Shown here piece by piece: positions 19,964-39,662 of a DNA stretch of 64,000 nt. The notes under the pieces were generated by a model that saw only the letters and a program-made list of their open reading frames with translations, was not told where the DNA came from and ran no database searches. The position numbers were made by a program, and so were the translations under genes. Origin of the DNA: a virus; the IMG/VR virus record IMGVR_UViG_2974694605_000001, positions 20,294-84,293 of that record. One strand, 5' to 3'. Numbering within the stretch: position 1 is the first letter of the stretch; every line of letters begins with the position of its first letter.

Positions 19964-20481
19964 TGGAAAAAGTTAAAATTTATTTCGCAAGCCCACTTTT
20001 CTCAGATATGGAACGTTGGTTTAATACTGATATTGTTGACAGTTTACGATACGCTCTTCCTGAAAATGTAGAGATTTATCTACCACAGGAAAATGAAGCA
20101 ATTAATGATAAGTCAGGATATGCAAACTCTGTAATGATTGCAGAAGCTGATACAAACGAACTGTTGAGTTCTGACTTTATTGTAGCTGTCCTAGACGGTG
20201 CAACAATTGATGTTGGTGTGGCTAGTGAAATTGGAGTTGCCTATGCTAAAGGCATTCCAGTTATTGGTCTGTATTCAGATTCACGTCAAGGTGCTTTTGG
20301 AAACACAAACAAAATCAACGCTCTTGAAGAGGTGGGGGAATCACAATTCTCTTATATTAATCTCTATACTGTAGGGTTAGTTAAATCTAACGGTGCTCTA
20401 TTTAAAGATGTTGGAGACTGGTTCGACTACATTGTTGACGAAGCTAAAAAATTATCAGAAGAAAAGGAAACAAATGACTAA
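19963..20481 (+). CDS. nucleoside 2'-deoxyribosyltransferase family protein
   Basis: KIYFASPLFS, PQEN, DVGVASEIGVAYA. Confidence 0.88.
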   Translation: MEKVKIYFASPLFSDMERWFNTDIVDSLRYALPENVEIYLPQENEAINDKSGYANSVMIAEADTNELLSSDFIVAVLDGATIDVGVASEIGVAYAKGIPVIGLYSDSRQGAFGNTNKINALEEVGESQFSYINLYTVGLVKSNGALFKDVGDWFDYIVDEAKKLSEEKETND

Positions 20482-27627: not shown

Positions 27628-27991
27628 TATTTTAATTGCTTATAAATCATTAGGTGGCAACTGTGATAGAGTAATTAAAAAACTGGGTATCGAAGGATTT
27701 AAGATTGATGGAGATAACATCTACGACTTTAATGAGGATAGTAAATTTTATCTCTTGATTCCCACTTATGAGGAAGAGTGGATTGGAGATGCGTGGGATT
27801 TTATGGATGATTATCATGATAACTGCCTAGGTATCATAGGGTCAGGAAACTTTAACTTTGGAGATGACATGTTTATATTCACAGCGAACGACATGAGTAA
27901 AAAATATGATATTCCTGTAATCTATTCCATCGAGAATTTTGGAAACAAGAAAGACATCAATAACATTAAAGAGTTATTGCAAATAAATTAA
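27620..27991 (+). CDS. nrdI: NrdI flavodoxin
   Basis: YKSLGGNC, PTYE, GIIGSGNFNFG. Confidence 0.88.
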   Translation: MDNILIAYKSLGGNCDRVIKKLGIEGFKIDGDNIYDFNEDSKFYLLIPTYEEEWIGDAWDFMDDYHDNCLGIIGSGNFNFGDDMFIFTANDMSKKYDIPVIYSIENFGNKKDINNIKELLQIN

Positions 27992-28004
27992 TAGGAGGTT
28001 TCAC

Positions 28005-31000
28005 TTGACAGTCACAAAGATTGAAACAAAAAAATCAGTAACACCAGAGTATTTTACGCTCAACAACCAACTAAATATTATTAAAGATGGTAAAATTCAG
28101 TTGAACGCAGACAGAGAAGCTGTCCATAGTTATTTCATTGATTATGTAAATCCACACACAGTCTATTTTGGGGATTTAGAAGAAAAAATCAATTATTTAA
28201 TTAAAAATAAATACATTCAACCAGAGTTATTGGAGATGTATAATTTTAAATTCATTAAAAAATTATTCAAATATCTCTATGATTATAAGTTTAGATTTAA
28301 AACTTTCATGGGTGCATATAAATTCTACTCTCAATATGCAATGAAAACAACTGACAACAAATCAATTCTCGAACGGTATGAAGATAGGCTTGCATTTAAT
28401 GCACTATTCATGGGTGGTGGAGATAAAAAACTTGCTATGAATTTAGCAGAAGAACTAATCACTCAACGTTATGTTCCTGCTACACCAACTCTTTTAAATA
28501 TGGGTAAAGTACGTGCAGGAGAAATGGTTTCATGTTTCTTAATTAACGTTGATGATAATATGAACTCTATTGGACGGTCTGTAAACTCAGTACTTCAATT
28601 ATCTAAAGCTGGTGGTGGTGTTGGTCTGGGATTGACTGATATTCGTCCAGCAGGAGACCCAATCAAAGGTATCGAAGGTATGGCTGACGGTGTAGTGCCT
28701 ATTATGAAAATGTATGAAGATGCCTTATCTTATGCTAATCAATTGGGGGCAAGGCAGGGTGCCGGTGTGACATATTTGAATATCTTCCACAAAGATATCA
28801 TTAAATTCTTGTCCACCAAAAAAGAAAATGCTGACGAAAAAGTTCGTGTTAAAACACTCTCTCTTGGAGTTGTAGTTCCTGATAAATTCTATGAACTCAT
28901 TGCTAAAGGAGAGACAATGTATCTCTTTAGTCCATATGACATCAAAAAAGAATATGGTATTAATATGTCAGACATGGATATCACAGAAATGTATGATGAA
29001 TTAGTTGAAAATAAAAATATCAAGAAAGATAAAATCTTTGCTCGTGACCTTGAAGAAGAAATGTCTAAACTTATTCAAGAGTCAGGATATCCATATATTA
29101 TTAACATTGATACAGCGAACGCTGAAAACTCAGTTCATGGTCGTATTAAAATGAGTAATTTGTGTTAATAGTTAGCACCTTTACAAAGAAATTTGTATCG
29201 AAAATCCAGTGAAACAGGGGAACTCTCATGTAGACAATCCTGTGCTAAATAAAATATAATTAAATTGGTATAAAAATGAAAGGGGGATAGAAATGAAAGA
29301 AAAATTTGGATTTGTATATATAACAACGTGTAATGTAAATGGTAAAAATTATATTGGCAAATGTCAATATAATAGAAAAAACGATTGGAAAAAATATCTA
29401 GGTTCTGGCATCGAATTAAAAGAAGATATTAAAAAGTATGGAAAAGAAAACTTCACACGTAAAATTCTAGAAGAATCAGACAATGATAGTGATTTACAGA
29501 ATCTAGAAGAATACTATATCAAAAAATATAATGCAGTAGAATCAAAAGAATTTTATAATTTAAAACCAAGCTCAATCGGTGGTGATACATTTAATTATAC
29601 AAAGAACCAAGAAGAGACGAGACGAAAGAAGTCTGAAAACGCTCTTGGGAAAAATAATGGAATGTATAATAGAGAGAAAACTAATGTTTTTTTGAATAGC
29701 ATATCAGATTCTAATTCTAAAGGTGTTATTATTGATGGTATATATTTTAAAAATGTAAGGTGTGTTTTAGAATATTTTAAGATAGACTATAATGAATTTA
29801 GAAGAGTTTCGTTTAAAAATTCACATGAAATAGTCTTTCCAAATAAATCAACATTAAAAAGAAATTCCACTTTTGGTGCTAAAATTTCTGTGAATGGTAT
29901 AGTTTATAGAAATAAAAAAGAAGCATGTAAAGAGTTGCATATGAATAATCAAACAATAAATAAATTTCTAAATGATACCAATAATTTAGAATATCAATAT
30001 CTTTAATTATATTTTTAAATGCCGAACGACTAGAGAAATCAGATAAATCAAGAGATTGATTTTGAATAAGAGAGTATCGTAAGCCACAAATGTGGTTGAA
30101 GCGCTGGAAATCTAAATCTCTCAATAAAGAGAGACATGATTATGATATAGTCTGTTCTGTATGGCGACATGCAGATGTTTACTAAGCTTGTATGTAAACT
30201 GCTAGAGATTAATGACCTCTAGTGAACACAAAGTCTGAAATTTTGCAAGTTCAAACACCATCTGAAATCAATGCAGACCAAACATTTGCACATCTAGGTA
30301 CTGACATTTCATGTAACTTAGGTTCAACTAACGTTGTAAATCTAATGGCATCACCTGACTTTGGTAAATCAGTAAACACTATGATTCGTGCATTGACTTA
30401 TGTTACTTCAACATCTTCTATTGATGAAGTTCCAACTATCAAGAATGCAAATGATAAGTATCATTCTGTGGGACTCGGTGCAATGAGTTTGAATGCTTAT
30501 CTTGCTAAAAATCAAATGTTCTATGGTTCACCAGAATCTATTGAATTTACTGGTATTTATTTCCAACTTTTGCGTTTCTATGCTTTAAAAGCATCATCTG
30601 AAATCGCAAAAGAAAAGAAACAAAAATTCTATGAATTTGAAAAATCAGAATATGCAAATGGTATATTCTTTGAACGATACATGCCACGTGTTAAATTTGA
30701 AGAAGACCTCTCTGATAAAGTAAAAGAATTATTTGAAGGTGTTCATATTCCAACAAAAGAAGAATGGAATGGGCTACAACAATCTATTGAAACAAATGGT
30801 TTGTATCATAGCTATCTTCTCGCTGTAGCTCCTACTGGAAGTATTTCTTATGTAAATGAAGCTACAGCATCTATTCACCCAATTGTACAAAAGATTGAGA
30901 AACGCTCAGAAGGTAAACGTGGTGATGTGTTCTATCCAGCACCTTATCTTGCAGAAGGTCTTCCCTACTACGAATCAGCTTATAACATTGACCAACGTAG

Positions 31001-31262
31001 AGTTATTGACATCTATGCCGAAGCTCAAAAGCACGTTGACCAATCTCTATCTATGACTTTGTTCATGAATGCAGACCACGGAAAAGATTTGTATGAGTGG
31101 AAAATAGGAAGCAAAGGAGAAGATTCATTCACTACTCGTGACATTAATATTCTTCGAAATTATGCTTGGTCAAAAAAAATAAAATCAATTTACTATGTTC
31201 GTACTTACCGCTCAGACGGTGAAGTAAGTTCAGTAAATGAATGCGAATCATGCTCAATTTAG
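28005..31262 (+). CDS. nrdE: class Ib RNR large subunit, join(28005..29165,30234..31262)
   Basis: PATPT, SCFL, GGGVG, GARQGAG, MSNLC|SEILQ, AVAPTGSIS, YYVRT, C-terminal CESC; 729 aa after splicing. Confidence 0.95.
29166..30233 (+). mobile_element. group I intron in nrdE carrying a GIY-YIG endonuclease
   Basis: follows TGT, ends in G; P7 AACGACTAG (30025) / GATATAGTCTG (30144); splicing restores NLCSEI. Confidence 0.92.
29293..30006 (+). CDS. intron-encoded GIY-YIG homing endonuclease
   Basis: GFVYITTCNVNGKNYIGK, YLGSG, E...I, FYNL; C-terminal NUMOD-like repeats. Confidence 0.88.
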   Translation: MKEKFGFVYITTCNVNGKNYIGKCQYNRKNDWKKYLGSGIELKEDIKKYGKENFTRKILEESDNDSDLQNLEEYYIKKYNAVESKEFYNLKPSSIGGDTFNYTKNQEETRRKKSENALGKNNGMYNREKTNVFLNSISDSNSKGVIIDGIYFKNVRCVLEYFKIDYNEFRRVSFKNSHEIVFPNKSTLKRNSTFGAKISVNGIVYRNKKEACKELHMNNQTINKFLNDTNNLEYQYL

Positions 31263-35092: not shown

Positions 35093-35114
35093 ATAATAAT
35101 GAAGGAGGACTATA

Positions 35115-37535
35115 ATGTCAAAAGTAAAATTAGTAAAAGCTGTGAATTGGAATCGGCTGGAAGATAACATTGACCGTGCAACTTGGGATAAATTGATTTC
35201 GCAGTTCTGGGTCAGCTCACGTGTACCCGTTTCAAATGACATGGGAGATTGGGGTAAATTGTCTGCCCCAGAGAAAGATTTGTTCAATAAAGTTTTTGGA
35301 GGGTTGACACTACTTGATACTTTGCAGGGTGAAGTCGGTAACAATGAGATTGCAAAAGATTCTCGTACTCAACATGAACTGGCTGTGTTCAGGAACATCT
35401 CATTTATGGAAGAGATAGAAAGCATTGTTTCTTTAGCTTAAAGAAATTTAAGCTTGGTAAAACCTATCTAAACAGGGGAACTCTGACCGTGTAAGACGAA
35501 GACAATCCTGTACTAAATTTATTGAAAGGAGACAAAATTGAAAATAATTGGAAGTAGAACTTATGAAAATATTTTATATAAAAGAATCTTTACTATACAT
35601 AAAGGTATGCTAGGGCGGTGTTACAATCCTAATGATACAAGTTATTCTACGTATGGTGCTAAAGGTGTTACAGTTGATGAACATTGGCACAATCTTGATA
35701 ATTTTATCGAAGATATTGATAAAATCGATGGGTTTGATTACAATAAGTTCATTAAAGCTGAGATTCAACTTGATAAAGATTTTAAACAAATTGGTGTTAA
35801 AAATAAAGTATATTCATTAAATACATGTGTATTTTTAAGTCGTTCTGATAATTGTGGGAATAGAAATAACAATCAAGATATGATTATCATTGACCCTGAC
35901 GGTAATAAATATGAATCACGTAATCGTGAAAAGTTCTGTCGTGAACATAACTTAGACACACGTCATGCACATGCAGTTCTACAAGGTAAAAATCCACACC
36001 ACAAAGGTTGGCAATTTTTCTATAAAGAAACATTCAATCCAGCAAATGTTGTACTTAAACAAATCATACTTGGTACAAATTCAGATGGCGATGAATTTTT
36101 GTTTAATAATATATCAACATTTGCTAAGGAACAGAATCTTTCTGCCCCAAATATTTCAATGGTTTTGTCTGGTAAAAATAAAACTCACAAAGGATGGACT
36201 TTTAAAATTATCCAAAAGGGTTTTACTATTCAATAATAAATGTGCAACGACTATCGAAAGGATAGCATTTCTCACAGTATAATTCTAGGGGAGATGTGAA
36301 TAACCAAGTAGAGTAGAGTTTAAGTAAACTCGAAATGGTAGGACATATCATTTACTTAAAAGTATGATATGTAAGATATAGTCTGAACTATATAGAAATA
36401 TATAGAGTGTGAGTAACGAACACACACAACAGCATTGACATGCGGAATCTTATTCAACAATCTTCTCAACTTTCTGTACTATGAAAGAGATTGATGGAAT
36501 ATTTGAGTGGACTGCAACAAATCCTTATATTGTTAAGAAAACAGAAATCGTTCAAGATATCTACGAAAATGGAACTCCTCTACAAAAGAAAATTGCATCA
36601 GTATTCTTGGAATCCTTCCTTTTCTACTCAGGATTCTTTACACCCTTGTATTATGCTGGACTCGGAAAGATGAAAAATACAGCCGAGATTATAAAATTAA
36701 TTTTGAGGGATGAGTCGGTTTTGTAAGTGAGCTGACTTAGGTATTTTGCCTTAGCGAAACCACAATCCTAAACAGGGAAACTCTCTCGCAGACAATCCTG
36801 TGTTAAATTATTGTAAAAACCTTATGATAAACTCTTTATCTTTTTTAAGATGATGAAGATTGGGAGTTTATCAAAAAGGAAGAAGTACAATATAAAGACT
36901 CAACGACTATCGAAAGGCAGTTAATAGCTCTAGGGGCTATTAATGAAACCAAGTAGAGTACAGCCAAGTGGTAAGCAATGTATGTGAAAATGGCATGCAG
37001 ATAAGTCTTTTAAATGGAAATGGAGTATGTGGGGTGTTGACTAACAACAACACTAAGATATAGTCTCAGCGTCCATAGTGATATGGAGAAGTTCATCAGA
37101 GAACTGCATAGAATTTACGACTCTATGTGAAGGTACTATCACGGATATTACATCGGCTACAAGTTTCAAATTGGATATAATGAATTAACAGAAGCTGAAC
37201 AAGAAGAGTTAGAAGAATGGACATTTGATTTACTTGATAAGCTATATCAAAATGAATTAAAATATACTGAACTTCTTTATGATGAAGTAGGTTATACTGA
37301 GGACGTGAAACAATTCCTCAAATACAACGCAGACAAAGCTCTTATGAATCTTGGATTCGACACCTTGTTTGAAGTTGGACGTGAAGATATCAATCCACTT
37401 GTAATGAATGGTATCTCAACTGAAACAGCTAACCATGATTTCTTCTCAGCGGTAGGTAATGGATATCTCCTTGGAGAAGTCGAAGCTATGAAAGACGATG
37501 ACTACGCTTTGATTAAAGAAAAACTCAATAAATAA
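35115..37535 (+). CDS. nrdF: class Ib RNR small subunit, join(35115..35416,36438..36719,37139..37535)
   Basis: splicing restores FMEEIHAESYSTIF and LRDESVHGYYIG; ESFLFYSGF; HDFFS; 326 aa. Confidence 0.92.
35417..36437 (+). mobile_element. group I intron 1 in nrdF with HNH-type endonuclease ORF
   Basis: P1 GAAGAGAT/GTTTCTTT with U.G; P7 AACGACTATC (36246) / GATATAGTCTG (36375); ends in G. Confidence 0.9.
35538..36236 (+). CDS. intron-encoded HNH-like homing endonuclease with C-terminal repeats
   Basis: GMLGRC..Y..YGAKGVTV..W..F; LDKD..YSLNTCVF..N; two HKGW-F repeats; GGAG RBS, TTG start. Confidence 0.8.
   Translation: MKIIGSRTYENILYKRIFTIHKGMLGRCYNPNDTSYSTYGAKGVTVDEHWHNLDNFIEDIDKIDGFDYNKFIKAEIQLDKDFKQIGVKNKVYSLNTCVFLSRSDNCGNRNNNQDMIIIDPDGNKYESRNREKFCREHNLDTRHAHAVLQGKNPHHKGWQFFYKETFNPANVVLKQIILGTNSDGDEFLFNNISTFAKEQNLSAPNISMVLSGKNKTHKGWTFKIIQKGFTIQ
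36720..37138 (+). mobile_element. group I intron 2 in nrdF (ORF-less, 419 nt), predicted to end in A
   Basis: P1 GAGTCGGT/GCTGACTT; P10 GTGA/TCAC; P7 AACGACTATC (36902) / GATATAGTCT (37057). Confidence 0.85.
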
Positions 37536-38482: not shown

Positions 38483-38758
38483 ATGGAAGCAATTGATGTT
38501 GAATTTACTATAGGTGTTGATGAAGACTGGGATGAAAAATTCCGATTGTTAACAATGAATTGTTATTACGATTTTGACATTTCTCAAAAGTTAGAAATGC
38601 TTGATGTTATTCGTAAAGGACTTATTGAAGAAGAAATCCGCAAAGTAACAAACATTATTAATACTCTGCATCATTCAACACATAACTCTGATGAATTAAC
38701 AAAACTCATTGAGGTGCAAACAAAATTATTAGAAGGATTAAAAAATAATGGAAATTAA
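38483..38758 (+). CDS. hypothetical protein
   Basis: AAGGA RBS. Confidence 0.65.
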   Translation: MEAIDVEFTIGVDEDWDEKFRLLTMNCYYDFDISQKLEMLDVIRKGLIEEEIRKVTNIINTLHHSTHNSDELTKLIEVQTKLLEGLKNNGN

Positions 38759-39662
38759 AGATGTAGTAATTATTGGTGGTGGAGTCGCAGGTACAACTGT
38801 GGCTTTATATCTTGCTCGTGCAGGATTCGAACCTGTCTTATTAACAGACGGTGAAATTGGTGGGAATCTTAATTCTATTGATACCATTCAAAATTACGTT
38901 GGAATTTATAACGCAAAAGGTAGTGATATTGCAGACGCAATTCTCACTCAACTTTATCAAGCTGGAATCATCAATAATGTCAAAGAATATACTAGAGTAA
39001 CTAATGTTTCTAAAGATAAGAATGGTCTTTATCTGATTACATATGAAAACCTTTTAGGTACTGAGGACATTGTTGCTTCTAAAAACCTTGTCATTGCAAC
39101 AGGTCAGCATAATCTTAAACTTCCCATTGATGTAGAACAACACAACTGTGTTTTATGTGATGGTTTTATGTTTAAAGATGAACCAGTAGTTGTAATTGGT
39201 GGTGGAAATTCCGCTTTAACAGAAGCAATCGAATTAGCTAAAACATCAAGTAAAGTTTATCTCGTTACTCGTAGACCTGAGTTCCGTGCAGAACAACATT
39301 TACAAAATGAAATCAAAAAACATGATAACATTGTTCATTCAGTAGGAAATCTTAAATCTGTGGTTGGGGATTCATATATCTTTGATACTCACACACTCAT
39401 TGCAAAAGGACTTTTTGTTTATATTGGTTCAAAACCTAACACACAGTTTATGGAAGACGAATTAATTCTAACAGATAGCGGACATATTGATACAATAGGA
39501 TATAATGCTTTGGTTGGTGTTAAGGGTAGTCGTCATATGGATATTGACCGTAATTTATATGTTGTTGGAGATGTTAATGGCACGGTTGAAGCAAAACAAT
39601 TTGGCATTGCTATTGGTCAAGCCACAGAAGTCGCAGTTCGGCTTATTAAAAAATTGTCATAA
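38748..39662 (+). CDS. trxB: thioredoxin reductase (low-molecular-weight, FAD/NADPH)
   Basis: IIGGGVAG, LVIATG, CVLCDG redox motif, IGGGNSA, TRRPEFRAE, YVVGD. Confidence 0.9.
   Translation: MEIKDVVIIGGGVAGTTVALYLARAGFEPVLLTDGEIGGNLNSIDTIQNYVGIYNAKGSDIADAILTQLYQAGIINNVKEYTRVTNVSKDKNGLYLITYENLLGTEDIVASKNLVIATGQHNLKLPIDVEQHNCVLCDGFMFKDEPVVVIGGGNSALTEAIELAKTSSKVYLVTRRPEFRAEQHLQNEIKKHDNIVHSVGNLKSVVGDSYIFDTHTLIAKGLFVYIGSKPNTQFMEDELILTDSGHIDTIGYNALVGVKGSRHMDIDRNLYVVGDVNGTVEAKQFGIAIGQATEVAVRLIKKLS

Follow-up and report, generated by a model that had tools for sequence, protein, structure and literature searches.

This report deals with an intron in nrdF, which encodes the small subunit of a class Ib ribonucleotide reductase, in a Lactococcus phage. 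The gene lies in a stretch of 64,000 nucleotides (nt), which we analysed as a whole and call the window (positions 20,294 to 84,293 of the IMG/VR record IMGVR_UViG_2974694605_000001, a virus genome of 132,949 bp). All positions without further specification refer to the window. nrdF consists of three exons separated by two group I introns of the IA2 type, and one intron is located at each of the ExxH metal-ligand motifs. A guanosine at the last intron position (omega) is treated as universally required for the second splicing reaction of group I introns, and databases and intron finders assume its presence. Judged from the sequence, intron 2 of this nrdF is most likely a rare natural exception to this rule and ends in A37138.

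Nucleotide comparison using a query of 1161 nt around the intron identified the source of the window as a Lactococcus phage of the 949 group, genus Audreyjarvisvirus. The identity of this query was 99.5% with phage WRP3, 98.7% with the AM and LW81 phages and 95.5% with phage P1048. An Rfam search of the whole phage genome revealed five Intron_gpI matches. The translated exons of nrdF span positions 2 to 280 of the Pfam profile PF00268 without a gap, and the protein encoded by the three together is estimated at about 326 amino acids. It contains the radical Tyr, the two ExxH motifs and the ligands Asp and Glu, and the motifs LLDTLQ, EEIHAESY, FLESF and DESVH can be read in the translations. Intron 1 is canonical, with the 5' site after U35416, omega-G36437 as the last base and a junction (AU/A CAU) that restores EEIH (...EEI/HAESY). 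In the GenBank records of the phages with a terminal A in intron 2 (omega-A) the gene appears as two or three unjoined fragments, and the exons are listed as separate genes or coding sequences.

The last base of nrdF intron 2

The match of exon 2 to the Pfam profile stops at position 193 and the match of exon 3 begins at position 195, which leaves one residue (Val) for the codon split by the intron. From this collinearity it follows that the spliced protein must read DESV/HG, with no residue gained or lost. We went through all combinations, as far as they are in frame, between a 5' site following a U (36690-36730) and a 3' site (37095-37164). DESVHG was restored solely by U36719/A37138 or by the equivalent pair U36720/U37139, and within these ranges no in-frame combination of a 5' site after U with a 3' site after G restored ExxH or DESVHG. 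The G-ended 3' sites led to DESVYYHG (G37132 or G37133), to the loss of HG (G37144), or to the loss of the Glu or worse. An uninterrupted DExxH was present in 75 of the 80 closest NrdF loci of IMG/VR and an insertion at this place in none, and the intronless alleles of the 949 group (phage phiL47 and the IMG/VR contig L247) read RDESV-HGAY.

At the level of the RNA, the wobble pair U36719·G36731 in P1 marks the 5' splice site. The P10 guide GUGA is located directly 5' of G36731, and its partner UCAC represents the first four bases of exon 3. The intron ends with UGAAGGUACUA, followed by the exon sequence UCACGGA, and the two bases in front of omega form P9.0 with J7/9. Both pairings covary between phages: for P9.0, Lactococcus and Brochothrix have AG/CU where Enterococcus has AA/UU, and the first pair of P10 is A36730-U37139 in Lactococcus and U-A in Enterococcus. 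P9.0 was also analysed in the wider family, using 164 intron 3' ends collected via the conserved P9.1 motif among the matches listed. Full pairing of J7/9 with the dinucleotide that precedes the presumed terminal G was observed in 75 of these ends; 42 were expected, and 1000 shuffles reached at most 60. A heuristic based on tail length, which is supportive but crude, found the first G 9-10 nt past GAA in 118 of the 216 loci listed; the lactococcal A stands at index 9. We place omega at A37138 because four independent lines of evidence point to it, namely profile collinearity, P10, P9.0 with its covariation, and the G-ended homologues described below.

The original prediction, made from the letters of the window alone, had fixed the 5' site after GAG TCG GT by means of P1, started exon 3 at T37139 to restore DESVHG, paired GTGA (36727-30) with TCAC and named A37138 as the last intron base. 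It had further described the G-binding pair in P7 as canonical and the nearest G sites as leading to a frameshift (37133) or to DESVYYHG (37132). Each of these features was recovered in the present analysis. The critical base was rechecked in independent records and read base by base in WRP3, AM1, LW81 and P1048; it is A in all of them, as in the window genome, and never G. Six further AM phages match a query of 486 nt with a score equal to that of AM1. The positions of the exons, introns and structural elements are compiled in the table.

Features of the nrdF locus and of intron 2 in the window
Feature	Positions	Strand	Basis
nrdF exon 1	35112..35416	+	Pfam Ribonuc_red_sm, profile positions 2-92, E=1.8e-22
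End of exon 1: AU of the Ile codon inside FMEEI/H, first ExxH motif	35416	+	sequence reading
nrdF intron 1, group I	35417..36437	+	Rfam Intron_gpI, partial match 36263-36405, 27.4 bits
Endonuclease open reading frame of intron 1, I-HmuI/HNH-type	35526-36236	+	Pfam I-HmuI_NUMOD-like match
nrdF exon 2, ends ...GAU GAG UCG GU	36438..36719	+	Pfam profile positions 95-193, E=9e-30
nrdF intron 2, IA2-type group I, without open reading frame, 419 nt	36720..37138	+	homology to Enterococcus/Brochothrix phage nrdF introns
P1 hairpin: 5' exon GAGUCGGU (36712-36719) with guide GCUGACUU (36731-36738)	36712..36738	+	sequence reading
P10 guide GUGA, pairs with UCAC 37139-37142	36727..36730	+	four contiguous Watson-Crick pairs
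P6a extension, no intact open reading frame	36815..36886	+	alignment to Enterococcus homologue
P7 5' strand ACGACUAU	36903..36910	+	sequence and Rfam alignment; identical in all three phage lineages
P7 3' strand AUAGUCU	37060..37066	+	sequence and Rfam alignment
J7/9 bases AG, P9.0 with C37136 and U37137 (just before omega)	37068..37069	+	pairing of A37068 and G37069
P9 (37072-87), P9.1 (37091-104) and P9.2 (37106-128), 3' domain	37072..37128	+	pairing, compensatory changes
Omega position, A not G	37138	+	protein collinearity, P10, P9.0, homologue alignment
nrdF exon 3, starts U CAC GGA (Val codon completed, then His-Gly)	37139..37535	+	Pfam profile positions 195-280, E=1.4e-19

A peculiarity of the whole genome was rejected as the origin of the terminal A. 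The 3' end was read in two other introns of this phage, nrdF intron 1 and the nrdE intron. Both terminate in G, so that omega-A is specific to nrdF intron 2. Editing of omega from A to inosine by TadA was also dropped as a candidate, since the context CUAUC is not the UACG loop motif.

The nrdE gene (about 27987-31262) is split at ...NLC/SEI... by a group I intron (29169-30231, plus strand), which carries an open reading frame (ORF) of 248 codons and ends with aaaG/UCUGAA. A further ORF at 38748-39659 (plus strand) is called 'ribonucleotide reductase large subunit' or 'alpha subunit' in related phages. By its match to Pfam Pyr_redox_2 (E=3e-26), its product is in fact a flavoprotein resembling thioredoxin reductase.

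Homologous introns with a terminal G

An nrdF intron at the identical insertion point (GAG UCG GU/N CAY GG) is found in the Kochikohdavirus phages of Enterococcus (Carl, vB_EfaH_149, 156 and LG1) and in the Brochothrix phage A9. These introns show 76-79% nucleotide identity to the lactococcal intron. Identity or covariation extends over P1, the core from P3 to P8, the G pocket in P7, P9, P9.1 and P9.2: P1 is the same, the core is essentially identical in the alignment, and the helices P8, P9 and P9.2 covary across the three phage lineages. The G-binding pair G36905-C37065, which adjoins the bulged C36904, is canonical and identical in all three. In the 3' domain, which comprises 18 pairs, 100% of the cells are paired and six pairs show compensatory changes; none of 500 shuffles was as good. 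The Rfam model Intron_gpI (RF00028) matches intron 2 at 36710-37088 over its full length (1-253) with 35.9 bits (E=5.4e-7), a score that does not reach the gathering score of the model.

The intron tails read ...AUAUUG/ACAUGG in Enterococcus, ...AUUACUG/ACAUGG in Brochothrix and ...GUACUA/UCACGG in Lactococcus, and occupy the same columns of the alignment. Since both outgroups have a G at the aligned column, G was the ancestral state and was changed to A in the lactococcal lineage. The Enterococcus and Brochothrix introns combine the canonical terminal G with one or two contiguous pairs in P10, whereas the lactococcal intron combines the A with four pairs. In addition, the Enterococcus intron contains an endonuclease-like ORF in P6a (annotated as HNH in close relatives), which is missing from P6a of the lactococcal intron. 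At the corresponding position an ORF of 24 codons, MMKIGSLSKRKKYNIKTQRLSKGS, starts with ATG (36850-36924, plus strand) in the P6a extension; it has no clear ribosome-binding site and, because of its location, is probably a remnant of the endonuclease-like ORF.

Further carriers were searched in two ways. A pattern of the intron tail with any base allowed at omega and at the following position found WRP3, LW81 and P1048 alone among the IMG/VR matches listed. A scan with the P9.1 motif, which covered IMG/VR and metagenomes and gave at least 230 loci, revealed among the matches listed no intron at this nrdF site besides those of the known phages. The P9.1 element itself, AGAAGUUCANNAGAGAACUG (37088-37106), is letter-identical in at least 230 viral and metagenomic contigs, which suggests a strongly constrained tertiary-contact module of this intron subfamily.

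The set of nrdF introns differs between related phages. Both introns are present in WRP3, the AM phages, LW81 and the phage of the window, and neither in phiL47 and L247. P1048 lacks intron 1 and contains intron 2, and its exons 1 and 2 are contiguous (P1048 locus positions 1245-1835). The presence of introns in nrdF thus forms a mosaic even inside a single phage genus. In phiL47 the nrdF gene, which has no intron, differs from the intact L247 allele by single-base insertions at locus positions 2566 and about 2772-2786. These would shift the reading frame, and GenBank annotates the 3' part alone; the allele either is a pseudogene or contains sequencing errors in homopolymers. Another 949-like contig (IMGVR_UViG_3300033072_000448, positions 1100-2500) contains two group I introns in nrdF, which are only about 29 nt apart. 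The micro-exon between them codes for no more than the second ExxH motif, (I)LRDESVHGA(Y), and the second of the two introns holds an ORF of 240 codons. Both introns were read as ending in a canonical G, and their insertion points are not the same as that of intron 2 in the window.

Selection on the gene and on the ribozyme

To estimate the selection on nrdF we compared the window with P1048, using exons 2 and 3 for the synonymous (dS) and nonsynonymous (dN) rates. The comparison gave 29.5 synonymous and 8.5 nonsynonymous changes, corresponding to a dS of 0.255, a dN of 0.016 and a dN/dS of 0.06. The exons are open and full-length in all carriers of omega-A, and five alleles showed neither insertions or deletions nor stop codons. 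A tract of about 55 nt in exon 3 separates the intron-bearing alleles (HGYYIGYKFQIGYNELTE) from the intronless alleles (HGAYIGYKHKLGFAELTE); it must have been co-converted together with intron 2. The co-converted tract contains three synonymous differences and one nonsynonymous difference (positions 37154, 37163, 37178 and 37194). As this intron-linked tract has diverged, intron 2 must predate the divergence, and selection acted while the intron was present.

Within intron 2 the window and P1048 differ at 10 of 419 positions (2.4%), about one tenth of the synonymous rate. Half of these differences (5/10) are located in the peripheral extension of P6a. At 36937, 36982 and 37050 a G-C or A-U pair is changed to G·U, and 36979 and 37114 are read as unpaired. 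In this structural placement, which was done by hand and in which P3 is not confidently defined, none of the differences disrupts an assigned helix. A single transition from A to G would yield a canonical intron and leave the protein unaltered, and still the A is kept in every lactococcal record checked. Because dN/dS is low, the ribozyme is conserved and the A persists in all lineages, we argue from these comparisons that correctly spliced nrdF messenger RNA (mRNA) is made and that the A is at least tolerated.

Splicing of an intron that ends in A

We assign a probability of about 0.6 to the interpretation that intron 2 is a still functional IA2 group I intron in which the terminal guanosine has been mutated to adenosine. 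The core and the G pocket are identical to those of the homologues with omega-G, and the first step should therefore be ordinary: an exogenous G bound in the unchanged G36905-C37065 pocket would attack after U36719. In the second step the 3' site would be held by the flanking P9.0 and the strong P10 of four base pairs and not by docking of an omega-G. Ligation after A37138 would then produce an mRNA with an intact DESVHG metal site. The rate of this reaction is probably below that of the homologues with omega-G, or splicing may be assisted by a factor. The terminal A may also suppress hydrolysis at the 3' site and circularisation of the intron, which compete with exon ligation.

The structural part of the original prediction (an A at the end, a canonical pocket and a 3' site fixed by P10) stands and is strengthened by the omega-G homologues. 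Its proposal of a working intron with unusual 3' splice-site chemistry gained indirect support from the dN/dS of about 0.06, the conservation of the core, roughly tenfold above that of synonymous sites, and the retention of the A across a dS of about 0.25. The slow, regulatory splicing step that it had also suggested is a matter of speculation.

A precedent for such an intron is known from hexacorals. The mitochondrial ND5-717 introns of sea anemones and mushroom corals end in A, and their exons are perfectly ligated in vivo (PMC6545197, PMC8146996). The suppression of 3' hydrolysis and circularisation by omega-A was proposed for these introns (PMC6545197, PMC8146996). They resemble intron 2 in the last base, the location in an essential and conserved protein gene, the long retention and the lack of a homing endonuclease gene of their own. 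In contrast to intron 2, they are mitochondrial, are described as of fungal origin, carry giant insertions with host genes in P8 and are listed among the obligatory introns dependent on host factors. The phage intron is a compact IA2 intron of 419 nt whose close relatives at this insertion site carry omega-G, and its splicing is predicted from sequence. In the literature we found no omega-A intron in a phage or a bacterium, and the one documented parallel is that in animal mitochondria. An account of nrdF introns in the 949 group was likewise not found in a search that did not include the paper on phage 949 (Samson and Moineau 2010).

The introns in td, nrdB and nrdD (sunY) of phage T4 and the introns of the Staphylococcus phage Twort are similar to intron 2 in other respects. 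They are IA2-like and interrupt codons of catalytic residues in genes of nucleotide metabolism. Their 3' site is chosen via P9.0 and P10. Unlike intron 2, they end in omega-G, and self-splicing has been shown. The engineered Tetrahymena mutants, G414A at omega and the specificity switch of the G-site pair G264-C311 to A-U, share the A at omega with intron 2. In the laboratory A is reportedly accepted only once the pocket is A-U (Michel 1989; Been and Perrotta 1991), whereas intron 2 keeps a G-C pocket.

Several observations weigh against a functional intron. A change of the G-binding pocket that compensates for the A, such as the switch from G-C to A-U, is absent, as neither the G-binding pair nor any other part of the core differs from the omega-G homologues. 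Tetrahymena mutants with G414 changed to A and a G-specific pocket are reported to be severely impaired in exon ligation (Michel 1989; Been and Perrotta 1991). The Rfam score of 35.9 bits is below the gathering score of 50, and the low divergence of the intron may stem in part from recent recombination and not from constraint. Moreover, phiL47 apparently tolerates a frameshifted nrdF, and some hosts may allow the phage to do without this gene.

Some of these points would also fit the assumption that the exchange from G to A abolished exon ligation. Intron 2 would then be dead and nrdF of this phage clade a recently formed pseudogene, while the deoxynucleoside triphosphates (dNTPs) would be supplied by the host NrdEF or by the phage class III reductase. 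The uncompensated pocket, the ligation defect reported for laboratory mutants of omega-G, the apparent frameshifts in phiL47 and the loss of the endonuclease ORF from intron 2, a typical stage of decay, are in line with this assumption. We nevertheless regard it as unlikely, since a dN/dS of 0.06 over a dS of 0.25 among carriers of omega-A and five alleles free of indels and stops are not in agreement with a pseudogene. The core, about tenfold more conserved than synonymous sites and with its assigned helices undisturbed, and the mostly synonymous divergence of the intron-linked exon tract also speak against it.

Slightly less probable is splicing mainly at a nearby cryptic G, as model introns with a mutated omega-G do. 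G37132 and G37144 are in frame. The resulting NrdF would be variant or truncated, and correct mRNA might be formed in trace amounts. Splicing at G37132 would yield DESVYYHG, at G37133 or G37143 a frameshift, and at G37144 a protein without His-Gly. However, P10 and P9.0 fit none of these sites, an indel inside ExxH occurs in none of the 75 related NrdF proteins, and the strong purifying selection on the residues of exon 3 is hard to reconcile with a broken metal site.

It is more doubtful still that omega-A is positively maintained and renders the splicing of nrdF conditional, for instance on pH in acidifying Lactococcus cultures, on Mg2+ or on a phage or host chaperone. In such a case the adenine would dock weakly, possibly as N1-protonated A+ on the Hoogsteen edge of G36905, similar to an A+·G mismatch. 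If true, this would constitute a natural switch at the ribozyme level that controls the dNTP supply via synthesis of the class Ib reductase and also blocks 3' hydrolysis and circularisation.

The listing of the exons as separate coding sequences in GenBank would agree with a translation of the exons into individual chains that come together without splicing, comparable to the genes-in-pieces NrdA of the Aeromonas phage Aeh1. We consider this very improbable, because an in-frame UGA (37128-30) is located three codons ahead of the His codon, exon 3 is preceded by neither a start codon nor a ribosome-binding site, Glu and His of one ExxH motif would reside on different chains, and there would be no reason for a complete ribozyme to stay conserved. 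A sequencing or assembly error at A37138 is refuted by the same base in separate GenBank and IMG records of different phages.

Taken together, a compact phage intron has lost omega-G, which its sisters inserted at this codon retain, and both the gene and the intron core are under purifying selection. For annotation this is relevant because nrdF is left unjoined in the GenBank records of these phages. The lactococcal intron and its homologues form a natural pair that is simple and accessible to genetics, with A or G at omega and a strong or a weak P10. With this pair one could examine to what extent P9.0 and P10 substitute for the docking of omega-G, and whether omega-A is of benefit to the phage, either by preventing 3' hydrolysis and circularisation or by slowing down expression.

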